From NCBI GenBank assembly GCA_965602375.1, contig CBFCZG010000003.1, forward strand, positions 1 to 39,964: a stretch of DNA of 39,964 nucleotides. Direction: 5' to 3'. Shown piece by piece: positions 1 to 33,280 of this stretch. The DNA is from an uncultured Phycisphaerae bacterium (GTDB taxonomy: Bacteria; Planctomycetota; Phycisphaerae; UBA1845; DATKUK01). Within the stretch, counting starts at the first letter, position 1. Each line of letters begins with the position of its first letter. The translations under genes were made by a program, and so were the position numbers. The notes under the pieces were generated by a model. That model had not been told where the DNA came from, ran no database searches, and saw only the letters and a list, made by a program, of their open reading frames with translations.

Positions 1-173
1 CGATCTGGCACCCGGGGGTGCACGACGATCCGTTCGGGATGCGCCTGACGACGCTGATGATCTCGAAGAAAATCGCCGACAGCGCCGTGCCCATGTCGCT
101 GCTGGCGCTGCATCCCAACGTGCGATTCAACTTCCTGCAAAGCGGCATCGGCACGTGTGAGCTTGGAATCTAG
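1..173 (+). CDS. 3' end of a gene entering the window, possibly glucosamine-6-phosphate isomerase/deaminase-like
   Basis: Frame 3 reads [44 protein letters not shown]...* with TAG at 171-173. The VPxSLLxxHPNV C-terminus resembles NagB-like proteins. It ends 5 nt before the next ATG. Confidence 0.5.
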
Positions 174-27994: not shown

Positions 27995-28624
27995 CTATCG
28001 CCTTCGCCTCAGACCCGCCGCCGCGCCGAGAATCAGCAGCGACAACGCAGCCGGCTCGGGAACGTATCGGTCGTCCGGGGTCAGTTCCACCGTCGCAGTG
28101 GCCGAGAAGGGACTGCCAAAATCGTCCAAATCCAGATCCAGCGTGAACGTGATCTGACTGTTGGTGAAGCTCGCCCCGGGCCAGTCGTGCGCGTCCACCA
28201 GCAGCCCAGCCGCGTTGCTCAGCGAGCCGATGCCCACCAACTCGCCTGACGTGTCCTCAGCCGCACGGTACCAGTCGACGTCGCAGGCCAACAGGTCGTC
28301 GCCGCCATAGGCCAGGGCAAAAGAGCCGTTCTGGAAGTAGCCGTCCGCCATCTGGCCGCTCGACCAGTCGTTGGTCAGCACCATCGACCAATCGAACTCG
28401 CCCCAGAACGTGTCGATCGACGAGTCTGCATACTGCACGGCCACCTGGCTGGGGTGGGCGGCAAAGGTCAACGCGCTTCCCGCTCCACCCGGCGCCAAAC
28501 TCACGGGCACGTCGGCCACCGTAATTCCGCCGATCAGCCCGCCCCCGTACCCCGGCGGCAACTGGGCCCGCGCCACACCGGCCAGGGCAACCACCAACAC
28601 GCTGCACATCGCACTGGTTCTCAT
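27995..28624 (-). CDS. PEP-CTERM sorting domain protein (unit A)
   Basis: Signal peptide (…AGVARA), beta-rich body, C-terminal VPEPAALSLLILGAAAGLRRRR. GGAGAGG RBS. Confidence 0.92.
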   Translation of the reverse strand: MRTSAMCSVLVVALAGVARAQLPPGYGGGLIGGITVADVPVSLAPGGAGSALTFAAHPSQVAVQYADSSIDTFWGEFDWSMVLTNDWSSGQMADGYFQNGSFALAYGGDDLLACDVDWYRAAEDTSGELVGIGSLSNAAGLLVDAHDWPGASFTNSQITFTLDLDLDDFGSPFSATATVELTPDDRYVPEPAALSLLILGAAAGLRRRR

Positions 28625-28737
28625 CCTCTCCACCTCTGAATTGCACCCAAGATACCGACCACCAACGGCAGCGTCGACGCTTCGACCCCTGCCGTCGGAA
28701 CACGAGTCCGTGCCGACACCCGCCGGGCCTGCGACAT
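28621..28737 (-). pseudogene. 38-codon relic: PEP-CTERM-like start fused to a degenerate PEP-CTERM tail
   Basis: MSQARRVSARTRVPTAGVEASTLPLVVGILGAIQRWRG*. Its end aligns with AVPEPSTLSLLALGVLAAIRRRR, its start context AAGATGTCG matches gene 32661, and its stop overlaps the next start (ATGA). Confidence 0.4.
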
Positions 28738-28790
28738 CTTCGGCCTTCCCCTCGCTGCTCCCACCACGTTTGGGATCGCGCCTCTTCCCG

Positions 28791-28885
28791 CAACTCTCCG
28801 TCACCCCAGGCAGAACGTCACTCAGCCGGGCCCCTCACAGCCCCACCGACTCTTTTAGTCTACTGAGTGGGCCCTGCCGGTTCAA
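28791..28885 (-). promoter_or_regulatory. promoter plus conserved leader motif, copy A
   Basis: TTGAAC-17-TAGACT followed by GTCGGTGGGGCTGTGAGGGGCCCGGCTGAGTGACGTTCTGCCTGGGGTGA; colinear with 32731-32825. Confidence 0.75.
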
Positions 28886-29143
28886 GCCCGCCCCCAGGCC
28901 TGGAAACCAGCCGGCCAACCGTCTGTCAATCAGGGCGTTGTCTTGACACGACACGATATGGCGCATACGAATGCTGTCGCGCAGTGTCCTGTAAATGGGC
29001 TGATCCGCCGCTGAGAGGATCAGCCGAGTGTCTTTGGGGCAACGGAGGCAGCCGCCTGACTGCCGGCGGCGTCTTAAGTAACTGGATAACAGGCTTTTAC
29101 ATCTGAGGTCGACGGGGGACAGACAGTTTTTCCCAAGTACTTC

Positions 29144-29172
29144 TTGAAAATGTCCGATCCGTGAGTTAAGCT
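29144..29172 (+). promoter_or_regulatory. sigma70-type promoter, probably giving a leaderless mRNA
   Basis: TTGAAA-17 nt-TAAGCT ending 4 nt before ATG 29177; no Shine-Dalgarno. Confidence 0.5.
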
Positions 29173-29176
29173 TCCT

Positions 29177-29437
29177 ATGGCAAGAGTCGTATGCTTCGAC
29201 GTGCCGGGCATTGAAATGTGGATACCTTCGGGAGACCACGAGCCGCCGCATTTTCACGCCAGGCGGCCCGGCCACTGGCGGGTGCGAGTGTTTTTCCTCG
29301 AGCCGGCTGGCCGGATGATTCGGGACATCAGGCCCGCGCGGGCACAGATTCGACCCAACGTCCGAAGAGCCATAGTGACTGGAGCTGAACAGAACCGACA
29401 AGCCCTGATCGAGCAGTGGCAGGCATGCCAAGGCTAG
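29177..29437 (+). CDS. DUF4160 domain protein (putative toxin, DhiT-like)
   Basis: 86 aa with DHEPPHFHA motif and C-terminal LIEQW. Confidence 0.85.
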   Translation: MARVVCFDVPGIEMWIPSGDHEPPHFHARRPGHWRVRVFFLEPAGRMIRDIRPARAQIRPNVRRAIVTGAEQNRQALIEQWQACQG

Positions 29438-29456
29438 CAGGGCATGAGGAGGAACC

Positions 29457-30344
29457 ATGGTGGGCGCAGCGCCAACTCTAGTATCACGTTGTGCGGTCAT
29501 CTTTCGAGATGCCGGACTCTGGCGTCTTGCCCGCCCGCAGCTATCGCGCCGGCTTGGCCGGCAAGGGGCATATCCGCGTCTTCTCCGCGATTGGCGTGAC
29601 GTCAAGACTCGAAACACCGGCGACCTCTACGTTGTCGCGTTTCAGCGTGCGTTCCTTGATGAGACGGAGGTGAGCAGCGCTCGACAGGCCCGAGTCAGGG
29701 GACAGAAAAGGTTTCTTGTCCTGCCCGACGAATCGCCCCAGCCGTCGCTTCCTGAAATCCTTCTCAAGCTGAGAATCCGGTCGCTCAATCGCATTCACAT
29801 GCCAGAAGAGCAAACAGATATCAAATCGCTCGTGCGTCGCTTTGTGGCTGCGTTGGCGCGAATGTCGACCGAGCCGACCATTGCCGATGCGTGGTGGGAA
29901 GACGATACGTTCATCGTGCTCTCGCCGACGTTCGAGCGATTGAGAGTACCAGCCGGTGATATCCCCAAAATCCGCGACGCTTCGGACGACGAGCGCCAAG
30001 GGTTTGAGATCGACTCATACGGCGAGTACGTCTACTGGCCCGCGCAGGATGTTCACATGGGGTGGTCTCAGTTCGAGCAGGCGGTTGCCCCCCAGGCCAG
30101 GCTGCGAGCACAGCAGCGGTCAGATGCCTTCAATAAGAGGTACGGCCAGGCCATTCGGCGTGTGCGAGAAAGGGCGGGGCTTCGGCAGTCTGACGTTGGC
30201 GGTCTGGCCGATCGAACGGTGCGTCGAATCGAGCAAGGCCGGACCAGGGCAACCGTCAAGGCGCTGACCAAACTGGCAGCCGCTCATGGCATGAACACGA
30301 ATGACTATCTGGCTGCGCTGGCGGCCGAGTTGGGCAAAACGTGA
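29457..30344 (+). CDS. DUF2442 + XRE-HTH protein with long N-terminal extension (putative antitoxin)
   Basis: RLRVP..IPKIRDASDDERQGFEIDSYGEYVYWP (DUF2442) followed by IRRVRERAGLRQSD...TVRRIEQG (HTH_3). AGGAGG RBS. Confidence 0.82.
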   Translation: MVGAAPTLVSRCAVIFRDAGLWRLARPQLSRRLGRQGAYPRLLRDWRDVKTRNTGDLYVVAFQRAFLDETEVSSARQARVRGQKRFLVLPDESPQPSLPEILLKLRIRSLNRIHMPEEQTDIKSLVRRFVAALARMSTEPTIADAWWEDDTFIVLSPTFERLRVPAGDIPKIRDASDDERQGFEIDSYGEYVYWPAQDVHMGWSQFEQAVAPQARLRAQQRSDAFNKRYGQAIRRVRERAGLRQSDVGGLADRTVRRIEQGRTRATVKALTKLAAAHGMNTNDYLAALAAELGKT

Positions 30345-30505
30345 CGAGACCGCCCCTGAGGCTTTCAGGCTATAGTCTACGTGAAGGGCAACCAGCGGCT
30401 CGCCAAAGCACAATCAGTGCATCGCAGTCGCCCCACGCATGCCACAACCTGCGGCGGGGGTGGCACGGTCCGGCGCGGCCGGGCCGTTAAGCTTGGAAAC
30501 GGCTA

Positions 30506-30528
30506 GGACGGGTTCCCCCCGCCTTTTT
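30506..30528 (+). terminator. putative intrinsic terminator of the TA-like operon
   Basis: GGACGGG-TTCCC-CCCGCC (one bulge) followed by TTTTT. Confidence 0.45.
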
Positions 30529-30545
30529 CCCCGTCTCCCTGTCGC

Positions 30546-31571
30546 CTACCGCCTCCGTCTGATCGCCGCTAGGACCCCGAGGGCCAGCAGCGACAACGTA
30601 GATGGTTCCGGCACTGCTGCAAGTCGAATGCCGGCGTACGGGCTCTCCCAGGTTGGGAAAGCACCCCCACTGCGGCATGCCGCTACTTGGCCGTCCTCGT
30701 CCGACCAACCGCCGCCCCGAGTACGCGCATAGAGCCGACCGTAGACGTCCACAAATCTGACTTCAAGCCACTCCCACATGTTGCCGTTCTGGTCGTACGT
30801 ACCGTACCCACTCACCGACATTGCGTAGGCCCCCACGTCAGTCGCGAGGTATGGCGGCCCGACAGCGAATCCCTCCGGGTATCCCGCAGCTTCGTCGAAA
30901 TGGTTAGTTGAATTGCCGGTGTCGGCTGACGGAGGGTTGTTATCCGGTGCGACGTCGCTCTGCGTCGCATAGTCCCAGTATCCCGCGTCTGTACTACCCC
31001 CCTTGTAGTAGGCTGCCTTGTACCACTCGTTCTCGCCAGGCAGAAAGACCTTTGCGCCGGGCTTGCGAACGGCGTCGGCGCCCAGCGAAAGGTCGTACGC
31101 ACCATCCTCGGTGGTGGAGGCATCCTGCAAGCCCGTCGGCTGGCCATTGTGGAGCCAATTCGCGAATCGGATGGAGTCATACCAACTCACGTAGTTCACT
31201 GGCTTGTTCAGCCAGCCGAGATCCCCACCCTTAGGACCATAGTGGCAGTTACCCGGCATGCCAAAACGCTCAATTCCATATCCAGTTTCCGTGCTGTTGT
31301 ACAGACCGTATGAATCTTCCACCCTGGCCACCGCGTTGAGAAACTCGATATACTGCGCGTTCGTGACCTCGAACTTCCCAATCTGGTACGTGTAGCTGAC
31401 ACTGCCGTAGCCGGTAGTACCGTCGATCATGATCTCCGTATCGGGAGCATTCCCCGCATCGCCGACGTTGACCCATTCCATGACGACTTCTGCCTGCACG
31501 CCAGAGACGCAGGACACCAGAGCACCAAGCGAGAGTGTGATCAATACCATACGAGCATCTGAAGGGCGCAT
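30546..31571 (-). CDS. SUMF1/FGE-sulfatase-domain PEP-CTERM protein (unit C)
   Basis: Signal peptide, VGDAGN, IGKFEVTNAQY, PVNYVSWYD, EWYKAAY, DQNGNMWEW, RGGGW and tail VPEPSTLSLLALGVLAAIRRRR. GGAGG RBS. Confidence 0.93.
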   Translation of the reverse strand: MRPSDARMVLITLSLGALVSCVSGVQAEVVMEWVNVGDAGNAPDTEIMIDGTTGYGSVSYTYQIGKFEVTNAQYIEFLNAVARVEDSYGLYNSTETGYGIERFGMPGNCHYGPKGGDLGWLNKPVNYVSWYDSIRFANWLHNGQPTGLQDASTTEDGAYDLSLGADAVRKPGAKVFLPGENEWYKAAYYKGGSTDAGYWDYATQSDVAPDNNPPSADTGNSTNHFDEAAGYPEGFAVGPPYLATDVGAYAMSVSGYGTYDQNGNMWEWLEVRFVDVYGRLYARTRGGGWSDEDGQVAACRSGGAFPTWESPYAGIRLAAVPEPSTLSLLALGVLAAIRRRR

Positions 31572-31636
31572 GCCGTCACCTCCGTTCTCAGAAGCCCATC
31601 GACGTGCCCCTTCCAGACGCCGCCCCATGCGACCCC

Positions 31637-31672
31637 AAACGAAAAGAGAGCACGCGTTCTGACGTCTCTCTC
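31637..31672 (-). terminator. terminator-like hairpin between PEP-CTERM genes B and C
   Basis: GAGAGAG...CGCGTGCTCTCTTTTCGTTT; the 3' half is shared with 32713-32732. Confidence 0.55.
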
Positions 31673-31713
31673 ATCTCCCTCGACCGATTGTCTTACGGCA
31701 GAGACAGCGCTCC

Positions 31714-32661
31714 CTACCGCTTTCGCCACAACGCCGCCAAGCCGCCGAGGGCCAGCAGGCAGAGCGAGGCAGGCTCAGGAACGATCAACATACACCACGA
31801 TCCGGACGTGTGGGCGCCCGCCGGATCAAGTACTCTCAGCAATTCACCGGTGTCCGCGTCAAGATGAACGATCCCTGGCTCGCGATGGCCCGTAATATAC
31901 AGGGTCCCATCGGCGGCAACTGCGAGGCCAGCTGTCTCGTCTATATCCGGCACGGGTATGCGCCCCTTCGTTGCCCCGCTCAGTCCGTCGAAGCGATAGA
32001 CCCAAGAGTCATTGCCCACAAGATGAATGTCTCCGTCGGGTCCGATCTCCATGTTCCCAATCCGACTGGCATCATAGCTTTCGGCGAACACCCCGTCGAA
32101 CGCCAAGGATACGGCGTCGAATGCGAGGATATTGTGTCGTTCGTAGTTGCTCATAAGAAGCTTGCCGTCAGCGTTGACCTCCGCATCCACCGGCCACCAC
32201 ACCGATGCCCCATCGGGGTACGGCTCCGTCTGGCCAGTCACCGCCCCTGTGTCGGCATCGAGCCGATATATGGCCATATCGGCCCGAGCGGGTACATAGA
32301 ACTGGTCGTCGGCATAGGTAATACCCGTTGGTATATCGAAGCCGGATGCAAAGACCCCCAGGAACTCGCCGGAGTTCAGGTCATATTTCAGGATGTTGCC
32401 TCCCCAAACGTTCGCTACGTACAGCGCGCCGTCTGGGCCGATCGCCATATCCGCCGGCTCGTCGAGTCCGCCGTACCCGGGTGGCACAAGCGTCCGAACG
32501 TACTGGCCTGAGTCCAGGTCGAACTCGTGGATACTGTCACCGAAAGTGTCGCCCACAAGGAGTCGTTCCGTGCCAACGCCCGATGCGAGAGGCGCTAGAA
32601 ACAGGCTACTCAGAGCGAACACCCCCGTTATCGCGACGGTCGTTCGTTGGGAGGCCGACAT
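31714..32661 (-). CDS. beta-propeller (NHL/Vgb-like) PEP-CTERM protein (unit B)
   Basis: Signal peptide, repeated blades (IGPDGALYV, ILKYDLNSGEF, IGPDGDIH) and tail IVPEPASLCLLALGGLAALWRKR. Confidence 0.92.
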   Translation of the reverse strand: MSASQRTTVAITGVFALSSLFLAPLASGVGTERLLVGDTFGDSIHEFDLDSGQYVRTLVPPGYGGLDEPADMAIGPDGALYVANVWGGNILKYDLNSGEFLGVFASGFDIPTGITYADDQFYVPARADMAIYRLDADTGAVTGQTEPYPDGASVWWPVDAEVNADGKLLMSNYERHNILAFDAVSLAFDGVFAESYDASRIGNMEIGPDGDIHLVGNDSWVYRFDGLSGATKGRIPVPDIDETAGLAVAADGTLYITGHREPGIVHLDADTGELLRVLDPAGAHTSGSWCMLIVPEPASLCLLALGGLAALWRKR

Positions 32662-32715
32662 CTTAGACCCTCCGTGGCCGCGTAGGTTTCCCCTTGGGTG
32701 CCCCCTGCGGCCACG

Positions 32716-32739
32716 AAAAAAGAGAGCACGCGGCTCTCT
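32716..32739 (-). terminator. intrinsic terminator inside the 5' leader of PEP-CTERM gene B (attenuator-like)
   Basis: AGAGAGC-CGCGT-GCTCTCT followed by TTTTT, lying between the promoter and the ATG. Confidence 0.65.
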
Positions 32740-32825
32740 CTCGCCCCAGTCAGAATGTCGCTCAGCCGGCTCGCTTACAGCCCCACCGACACATAGAGTC
32801 TACTACGCAGGCCATCCGCATGCAA
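32731..32825 (-). promoter_or_regulatory. promoter plus conserved leader motif, copy B
   Basis: TTGCAT-17-TAGACT followed by GTCGGTGGGGCTGTAAGCGAGCCGGCTGAGCGACATTCTGACTGGGGCGA. Confidence 0.75.
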
Positions 32826-32969
32826 GGATGTCCTGGCAAAACCGTCCCTCGCCTGAGACTCGATCGCGCAAGTCGCCTTAGGAACTGTTGTTACGGCGCA
32901 CAGACAATGCTGACGTCACGGCAGGCCGCTCAACCTAGACTACCTGAATCGCCGCCCGGAAATGAAAAA

Positions 32970-33041
32970 AGCCGACGGAGGGACTCGAACCCTCAACCTC
33001 AGCTTTACGAAAGCTGTGCTCTACCATTGAGCTACATCGGC
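32970..33041 (-). tRNA. tRNA-Thr(CGT)
   Basis: GCCGATGTAGCTCAATGGTAGAGCACAGCTTTCGTAAAGCTGAGGTTGAGGGTTCGAGTCCCTCCGTCGGCT folds as a cloverleaf with anticodon CGT and GTTCGA T-loop. CCA is not encoded. Confidence 0.97.
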
Positions 33042-33054
33042 TGCGCGACGTGCA

Positions 33055-33084
33055 ACTTTACCCCGCCGACGGCCCGGCCGTCAA
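33055..33084 (-). promoter_or_regulatory. promoter of tRNA-Thr
   Basis: TTGACG-18 nt-TAAAGT, 13 nt before the tRNA 5' end. Confidence 0.6.
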
Positions 33085-33280
33085 GCACCCCACCTGCCCA
33101 CAGCCAACCGGGCTGGTCGCCACTCGCCTGACTTATCGCCCCCAAAGCCAGGCGCCTTGAGTAACGAGGGCCCACGAATCGCCCACAGGCATCGTCAACG
33201 CTGGCAAACGCTGTTACGCCGACTGGATAGAGACCCCGAAACCATGCAGTCTGTGGACGGTCAGGAAAGCGTGATCGTCA

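Follow-up and report, generated by a model that had tools for sequence, protein, structure and literature searches.

A hairpin-bearing leader family in front of PEP-CTERM genes in one order of Phycisphaerae

The DNA analysed here is a stretch of 39,964 nucleotides (nt) from an uncultured Phycisphaerae bacterium (GenBank assembly GCA_965602375.1, contig CBFCZG010000003.1, positions 1 to 39,964 of the forward strand), which we call the window throughout. It contains two copies, A and B, of a 50-nt motif, each lying between a promoter and a gene for a PEP-CTERM protein, the class of surface protein that is sorted by exosortase. From sequence comparison we conclude that the two copies belong to an undescribed family of predicted leaders that is found in one order of Phycisphaerae and stands almost always directly before PEP-CTERM (exosortase-sorted) or other secreted-protein genes. 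An earlier reading of the window, made from its letters alone (hereafter the sequence-only reading), had proposed a new cis-regulatory element before PEP-CTERM genes. That proposal is upheld, the promoter and leader being really shared, outside Rfam, and part of a family linked to PEP-CTERM genes. It had further taken the 50-mer for the unit that defines a regulon, and this we abandon: the first 34 nt of the 50-mer, a 5' hairpin that we call P1, are replaced wholesale between copies and absent from some members, and it is the hairpin downstream that is conserved. As judged from these comparisons, the 50-mer is the genus-specific front part (P1 and linker) of a wider leader family, whose conserved core is the hairpin that follows. 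We put a probability of about 0.5 on the leader being a promoter-proximal attenuator read by a trans-acting factor. The parts of the two leaders, and a further core hairpin in the window, are as follows.

28857..28885, minus strand: predicted sigma-70-type promoter of copy A (TTGAAC 28885-28880, 17-nt spacer, TAGACT 28862-28857), read from the sequence.
28801..28850, minus strand: copy A of the 50-mer (P1 hairpin and linker), from sequence, alignment and fold.
28789..28800, minus strand: copy A remnant of the purine 5' arm of the core hairpin; the pyrimidine 3' arm and U-run are missing and no terminator forms.
32797..32825, minus strand: predicted sigma-70-type promoter of copy B (TTGCAT 32825-32820, 17-nt spacer, TAGACT 32802-32797), read from the sequence.
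32741..32790, minus strand: copy B of the 50-mer, with the 5' hairpin P1 at about 32790-32757 and the linker at 32756-32743.
32716..32742, minus strand: copy B terminator-like hairpin and U-run, a short-top variant of the family core; fold -14 kcal/mol, covariance-model match 59-68 bits.
31642..31672, minus strand: second full core hairpin and U-run, between the stop codon of the NHL-repeat gene behind leader B and the next PEP-CTERM gene; model matches 55-61 bits, fold -15 kcal/mol.

The likeness between A and B is real and sharply bounded. On the minus strand copy A (28850-28801) and copy B (32790-32741) align without gaps at an offset of 3940, with 42 of 50 positions identical and eight mismatches, and so the match claimed by the sequence-only reading was reproduced in full. 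The best local alignment of the two regions extends over 71 nt, from AGTAGACT through GAGAG, with a score of 72, and the flanks beyond it behave like shuffled sequence (downstream score 22, with 13 of 300 shuffles as high; upstream score 15.5, with 177 of 300). Both copies do follow a promoter of the claimed TTGxxx-17-TAGACT type, though the claimed distance of 7 nt needs a small correction, 6 nt lying between TAGACT and a motif that starts at the seventh base past it in both copies. The promoter itself is ordinary, because TAGACT is a frequent second hexamer in this genome, in which 49 sites of the form TTGNNN-16..18-TAGACT were counted. When the 4.44-Mb assembly was searched by BLAST, the only above-noise partner of each copy was the other copy (47 nt, 85%, E 0.003), and an nhmmer profile from the two 80-mers recovered both at E ~1e-21 before dropping to E 0.34 and E 0.71. 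The first of these marginal matches (C19:17469) was rejected as lying inside a coding frame; the second (C45:1050), which falls short of significance, has a TAGACT-type promoter in front of the gene for a secreted protein without a PEP-CTERM tail. By both methods, then, the source genome (G000 in our numbering) holds only two copies of the 50-mer.

What the wider family shares is the hairpin after the motif. In its core a lower stem, GAGAGAG/CUCUCU, is separated by a small asymmetric internal loop from a G+C upper stem of four pairs, and a U-run comes directly behind; the short-top variant occurs in copy B and in two copies (contigs C19 and C113) of G001, the genome of a sister species in the same genus. 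The anatomy of an intrinsic terminator is present, with folds of -14 to -22 kcal/mol (-15 and -21.9 among them) followed by U4-U7, and most of the 33 copies aligned retain the U-run. As for the statement that the motif of copy B runs directly into an intrinsic terminator, the motif does run into a terminator-like hairpin and U-run, at 32742-32716. Members share a layout in which a promoter-like box is followed by a variable hairpin at the transcript start, a purine-rich linker, the core hairpin, the U-run and, 20-130 nt on, the start codon. Four to five copies of the core hairpin were found in the source genome, where the hairpin block also occurs on contig C184, before a PEP-CTERM gene, and on contig C84, before an open reading frame (ORF) of 667 amino acids without a PEP-CTERM tail. 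The full element precedes 3 of the 24 PEP-CTERM ORFs of this genome, and copy A is an additional partial one, matched neither by the terminator pattern nor by the covariance model.

The extent of the family was measured with two covariance models, R1 from nine seed copies and R2 from 33 aligned copies. At E<=1e-3, R2 found matches in 22 of the 151 genomes searched from the order, the richest of them with 11 copies; by taxonomic family within the order the matches fall in 1/1 (f1), 8/32 (f6), 6/32 (f7) and 1/1 (f10) genomes, with weak matches in f2 and f5. In a 151-genome sample of the class, five genomes outside the order gave one weak match each, and these were ordinary terminators or were followed by no PEP-CTERM gene. 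An exact degenerate pattern of the hairpin, run over 185,579 species genomes, returned 37 sites: 12 labelled Phycisphaerae, 11 labelled 'uncultured Planctomycetales', 8 in one unlabelled 'bacterium' metagenome-assembled genome (MAG), 2 Phycisphaerales, 1 Phycisphaeraceae, 1 Sedimentisphaerales, and single contigs in MAGs labelled Dehalococcoidia and Alphaproteobacteria.

The link to PEP-CTERM genes was tested on 46 R2 matches at E<=2e-5 in 14 other genomes, by classifying the ORF that starts at most 350 nt downstream. Thirty of these ORFs carry a PEP-CTERM tail, eight are other ORFs (one of them a PEP-CTERM gene broken by a frame change), seven run off the fetched DNA and one match has none, and the same procedure applied to the mirror side as a control found 0/46. 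The 37 pattern sites behave in the same way (21 PEP-CTERM, 2 other, 10 run off, 4 none; mirror 0). The orientation of the element relative to the gene is fixed, and the link is one-way: the element leads to a PEP-CTERM gene, but most PEP-CTERM genes are without the element. We also considered a miniature mobile repeat (MITE- or REP-like) and rejected it on the small number of copies, two of the 50-mer and four to five of the hairpin, and on their fixed orientation and position relative to PEP-CTERM genes. One contig of another genome (G010:C25) has four hairpin elements in ~6 kb, each between successive, mostly PEP-CTERM genes, which gives it the look of a tandem array of leader-gene cassettes.

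The sister species offers the closest view of how the leader is maintained. After the orthologous tRNA-Thr, G001 has at the syntenic site the promoter, P1, linker, hairpin and U-run of copy B; both promoter hexamers and the GTAGTAGACT block are retained, with 22 of 29 promoter positions identical. The gene behind this leader is a PEP-CTERM gene too, of a family unrelated to the NHL-repeat gene of copy B, and the presence of the same syntenic leader before unrelated PEP-CTERM genes in two species suggests cassette exchange behind a conserved leader. With copy B as the query, further copies at 75% and 68% identity and partial matches to the hairpin block were found in G001. Leaders are better conserved than four-fold sites, our proxy for neutral change. 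From past the -10 box to the end of the U-run, copy B and its G001 orthologue are identical at 72 of 81 positions, compared with 112/149 in the upstream spacer and 245/304 at the four-fold sites of xseA; the leader on C184 and its counterpart on C142 of G001 agree at 167 of 178, compared with 385/537 in coding DNA and 43/74 at four-fold sites.

These figures bear directly on whether A and B are just duplication leftovers, functionless and decaying neutrally. The source genome has only two 50-mer copies, copy A has lost half of the hairpin, and the A and B proteins are, as had been claimed, unrelated except for the sorting tail, all of which a decaying duplicate would explain; yet the sharp borders and unalignable flanks misfit a recent segmental duplication, copy B is kept in the sister species well above the adjacent spacer, and several families have preserved the core hairpin in front of genes of one class. 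The sequence-only reading had itself pointed to a lone pair of copies decaying at the neutral rate as the outcome that would undo it, and what was found is at least four B-like copies in G001 and leaders conserved above four-fold sites. Leftovers of this kind are largely refuted for copy B and stand for copy A alone, and as an account of the pair we regard them as very improbable.

Searches with the front part of the leader were less productive. BLAST of copy A (80 nt) in 60 relatives gave nothing better than E 0.009, and missed the G001 copies that were found later by synteny and with the copy B query. A P1-based pattern allowing up to three mismatches gave two matches in 400 genomes of the class (G001 lay outside this sample) and two in a reversed control, which is chance level. 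A metagenome scan with the P1 pattern produced five loci that were set aside, one matching the copy A region at 100% identity and coming from the same organism, and four being chance matches, one of them in a eukaryote-like coding frame. The BLAST homology between the window and G001 ends at ~32859 and ~27953, on two different G001 contigs, and inspection shows the leader B region still common to both species beyond the BLAST limit. Downstream of the syntenic leader on G001:C19 the PEP-CTERM gene lies in two frames, 104 amino acids and then a tail-bearing ORF, and is either a pseudogene or an assembly error.

The pattern of substitutions in the core hairpin fits a structure formed in RNA. In the 33-copy alignment 94.4% of 376 pair cells hold standard pairs, a proportion that reflects an alignment fitted to the model. 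One stem pair is G-U in 31/33 copies and would be a mismatch on the opposite strand, the changes in the upper stem are mostly C-G <-> U-G, and the lower stem is nearly invariant. Near-invariance of both arms with little covariation is also how a protein-recognised DNA site would look, and a helix-turn-helix (HTH) gene on the plus strand (29457-30344) is divergent from copy A; the inverted repeat could on these grounds be an operator site in the DNA, bound by a dimeric repressor or by a roadblock protein. However, the G-U pair and the C-G to U-G changes fit pairing in one strand of RNA only, the internal loop is asymmetric, a conserved U-run follows the hairpin, and the orientation is fixed with a position of +55 to +90 inside the transcript. 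An operator is disfavoured on these counts and we give it hardly any credence.

The front part of the leader behaves quite differently from the core. The outer helix of P1 is paired in 25 of 25 cells of five copies with one compensatory change, which is not significant (92/500 shuffles as high), in keeping with the earlier remark that pairing at the 5' end lacks convincing covariation. P1 sequences are replaced wholesale between copies, as in those of the C113, C63 and C184 type, and in G001:C90, G010:C25, G365:C46 and G024:C68 the hairpin follows the promoter-like box at once or almost at once. An AUUCUGA-type word in the linker was tried as a general feature of the family and dropped; it is present in 8/60 other members (0/60 downstream) and is not general because all eight carriers are of one lineage. 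A structured 5' part followed by a terminator does resemble a transcriptional riboswitch, one of the functions proposed in the sequence-only reading; the 50-mer would then be an aptamer (for a cyclic dinucleotide, e.g.) and the hairpin its expression platform. This explanation is disfavoured because the front part varies or is missing among members. No conserved aptamer emerges from P1 or the linker, no conserved antiterminator was seen by eye, and even at E<=10 there was no Rfam match; the chance that the 50-mer is an aptamer is in our estimation slight indeed.

The comparison with Rfam 15 covered more than the two copies. At the gathering threshold cmscan of the whole window returned only tRNA; at E<=10 the region 28500-33100 gave only tRNA-related noise, with no c-di-GMP-I/II, c-di-AMP or eps-associated RNA; and at E<=1 the only match among the 12 member loci searched was to part of a group II intron, in one locus and away from the element. 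No Rfam family thus matches either copy or the tested members, which agrees with the sequence-only reading's statement that the known cyclic dinucleotide aptamers do not fit. The intron piece, at 2633-2693 of the G365:C46 locus, is a group II intron domain (RF00029, 44.7 bits, above the gathering score) ~1.1 kb from the leader element.

The attenuator that we favour would have its modules in the order sigma-70-type promoter, P1 from about the first transcribed base, short purine-rich linker, and then core hairpin with U-run. RNA polymerase would stop at the hairpin unless a trans-acting factor allowed it to pass. What such a factor recognises would be the purine strand, which is invariant, together with the GGGA-type run immediately upstream of the hairpin, and it would in this way bring a set of surface-protein genes under joint control. 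The role of P1 is most likely confined to protecting the 5' end of the RNA. In copy B the 54 nt from U-run to ATG contain no promoter-like box, and in other genomes the start codon lies 0-177 nt past the model match; because the spacing between U-run and ATG is short and without a promoter-like box, the genes would have to be transcribed through the hairpin. We prefer a trans-acting reader to a ligand-binding RNA because conservation of the two arms extends across families, because a GGGA-type run stands just upstream, and because neither a conserved aptamer nor a competing helix was seen. Transcript start, termination, regulated read-through and the identity of the factor are all things that we infer from the DNA. 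In copy A the promoter, P1, linker and purine arm are kept, and with its pyrimidine arm and U-run lost it would be expected to read through constitutively.

Several observations weigh against an attenuator. The copy A leader would work, if at all, without a terminator. A few members have the hairpin without a good U-run (e.g., G024:C68, G465:C254 and the second site on G001:C82), and because of them the hairpin may act in another way. A simple consensus scan for promoters and terminators listed neither the promoters nor the copy B terminator, the latter probably because extension of the stem into the U-run leaves too few T in the tail window. Changes on both sides occur in only 2 of the 12 stem pairs; since the stems hardly covary and the alignment was fitted to the model, the hairpin structure rests on pairing potential. 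Folds of whole leaders are unremarkable, with z from +0.4 to -1.6 (A and B from -0.3 to -1.6), the C184 leader at -2.7 being the exception. An alternative (antiterminator) pairing was not seen by eye in folds and alignments, where no systematic search was made. Finally, 8 of 39 determinable strong matches stand before a non-PEP-CTERM ORF, and the element serves a minority of PEP-CTERM genes, with 5-11 elements per genome compared with at least 10-55 PEP-CTERM matches (7 with at least 55 in G465, 5 with at least 48 in G431).

A rival explanation is a role after transcription, in which the hairpin and its GGGA-type flank are a site for an RNA-binding regulator (e.g., CsrA) or an element of RNA stability or translation. 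GGA is found within 10 nt before the hairpin in 41/70 sites compared with 77/490 control windows, although the 70-site list includes a few reverse-strand images and copy B itself has no GGA before its hairpin. CsrA genes are present in 5/5 carrier genomes tested, with two paralogues in the source organism, a presence that does not discriminate, being known for element-carrying genomes alone. In some members the hairpin lacks a U-run or lies at the extreme 5' terminus of the predicted transcript, and orthologous leaders are conserved beyond the hairpin, down to the ribosome-binding site, both of which would suit such a role; a U-run kept in most members would, on the other hand, be needless for a pure protein-binding site. 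We hold this explanation to be unlikely, while taking it seriously. With respect to a reader for the attenuator, CsrA is the only candidate seen. A search for the ANTAR domain had no match in five carrier genomes, but was uninformative, the control genomes being silent too.

It also should be considered that promoter, P1, linker and hairpin might together make up a small RNA gene of ~85 nt, the family being sibling trans-acting small RNAs and downstream read-through being secondary. Promoter and terminator of copy B do delimit an RNA of ~85 nt. However, copy B and many other members leave no room for a separate promoter between U-run and start codon, and the downstream gene would depend on read-through; moreover P1 and the linker, in which the candidate seed would lie, are less conserved than any other part, and Hfq was not found in the source genome, which is 91% complete. 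A locus outside the window also speaks for such an RNA. At C351:49-138 of the source genome and its orthologue G001:C67:7269-7358, a promoter-like box of its own is followed by the same linker and purine tract as in the family and by a different strong terminator, and another promoter-like box comes before the next gene. This unit may be a small RNA in its own right that has the leader core in common with the family. For the family at large we find a set of small RNA genes improbable.

If the leader does act as an attenuator, a more ambitious picture can be drawn, though we consider it doubtful at this stage. The family may be an order-specific RNA switch for part of the exosortase substrates, in which an RNA-binding regulator on the purine strand (the GGGA run and GAGAGAG) would license read-through and would couple the output of surface proteins to the state of envelope and polysaccharide. 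The 5' leader and the 3' PEP-CTERM tail could then serve as handles for swaps of the passenger gene between them.

The regulation of PEP-CTERM genes has been described in a different form. In the passages of Haft et al. 2006 (PMC1569441) on upstream motifs, the proteobacterial PEP-CTERM site consists of motif 1 and a sigma-54 motif 2, with PrsK/PrsR/PrsT; such motifs are given there as found only in Proteobacteria, with others elsewhere remaining to be found. On that description the proteobacterial site and the Phycisphaerae leader are alike in being a shared non-coding element, in long upstream regions, before many but not all PEP-CTERM genes, and in marking a co-regulated set. They differ in that the proteobacterial site is a DNA activator box with a -24/-12 promoter, whereas here there is a -35/-10-type promoter and a transcribed hairpin with U-run. 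A sigma-54 consensus (-24 GG, -12 GC), allowed up to two mismatches, gave 44 matches in the window compared with 45 expected, none of them in 28625-29100 or 32662-32970.

A further comparison is with the attenuators under RNA-binding antiterminators, such as RAT/BglG-SacY-LicT, ANTAR targets, TRAP and PyrR. In these systems conservation falls on an antiterminator hairpin or repeat overlapping the terminator, and the terminator sequence differs from case to case. The likeness lies in a terminator hairpin in the 5' untranslated region of unlinked genes of one class, with conservation pointing to a common trans-acting reader; unlike them, the leader here has both arms of the terminator conserved and no competing structure seen by eye. 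For P1 the comparison is with 5'-terminal stem-loops that stabilise bacterial mRNAs, e.g., in the ompA and aprE leaders. P1 likewise begins close to the presumed first base of the transcript and has retained the capacity to fold as a hairpin despite sequence drift, but it is missing in some members and a stabilising role is putative. CsrA controls polysaccharide and biofilm leaders such as pgaA, where the classic sites are in hairpin loops. GGA-containing purine tracts near the leader structure and at the ribosome-binding site, together with the CsrA genes, recall these leaders, while the missing GGA before the hairpin of copy B does not, and binding by CsrA is at most a candidate.

A literature search, with subscription journals and bioRxiv supplements outside it, found no description of such a PEP-CTERM leader. 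Regulation of PEP-CTERM/exosortase substrates is known only for Proteobacteria, through the sigma-54 box, and other lineages are left open in the motif passages of Haft et al. 2006 (PMC1569441). With the leader as a searchable mark, a presumably co-regulated subset of the surface proteins can be picked out in the largely uncultured Phycisphaerae, and the leader is a candidate new RNA family for Rfam. It also brings a testable hypothesis, of termination at a sequence-invariant hairpin that would be relieved by a factor, and it shows the striking 50-mer to be a lineage-specific add-on and not the functional core.

The genes around the two leaders are the following.

31714..32661, minus strand: NHL-repeat PEP-CTERM gene behind leader B (ORF; Pfam NHL and PEP-CTERM), with its ATG at 32661, 54 nt past the U-run.
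30546..31628, minus strand: PEP-CTERM gene with an FGE-sulfatase domain behind the second hairpin (ORF, domain search).
27995..28624, minus strand: PEP-CTERM gene of 209 amino acids behind leader A, with a leader of ~230 nt (ORF, domain search).
32969..33042, minus strand: tRNA-Thr(CGU), the anchor of synteny with G001; it has a terminator of its own and lies a short way upstream of promoter B.

For the 209-amino-acid protein, a paralogue at 57% identity is encoded on contig C344 and a homologue at 48% in G001, and an A-type leader stands before neither; a purine-rich likeness in the leader of the C344 paralogue was dropped, as the G001 orthologue is without it. Within the copy A leader, 28621-28737 on the minus strand is an ORF of 38 codons with an AAGG-type box upstream, whose stop codon shares the sequence ATGA with the start codon of the PEP-CTERM gene, and whose start context, AAGATGTCG, resembles that of the copy B gene. 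This small ORF may be what remains of a signal-peptide sequence, or else an upstream ORF with a coupling role. The plus-strand gene at 29457-30344 encodes a C-terminal HTH_3/HTH_31 domain with a weak DUF2442 match and is a possible local regulator. Elsewhere in the source genome, at C45:1026-2290, a TTGCGT-17-TAGACT box precedes the gene for a secreted protein of 387 amino acids with aspartate-rich repeats. At its C-terminus this protein has no PEP motif but combines a Cys-Cys-Gly motif with a hydrophobic helix and a basic tail, and it may carry another sorting signal.

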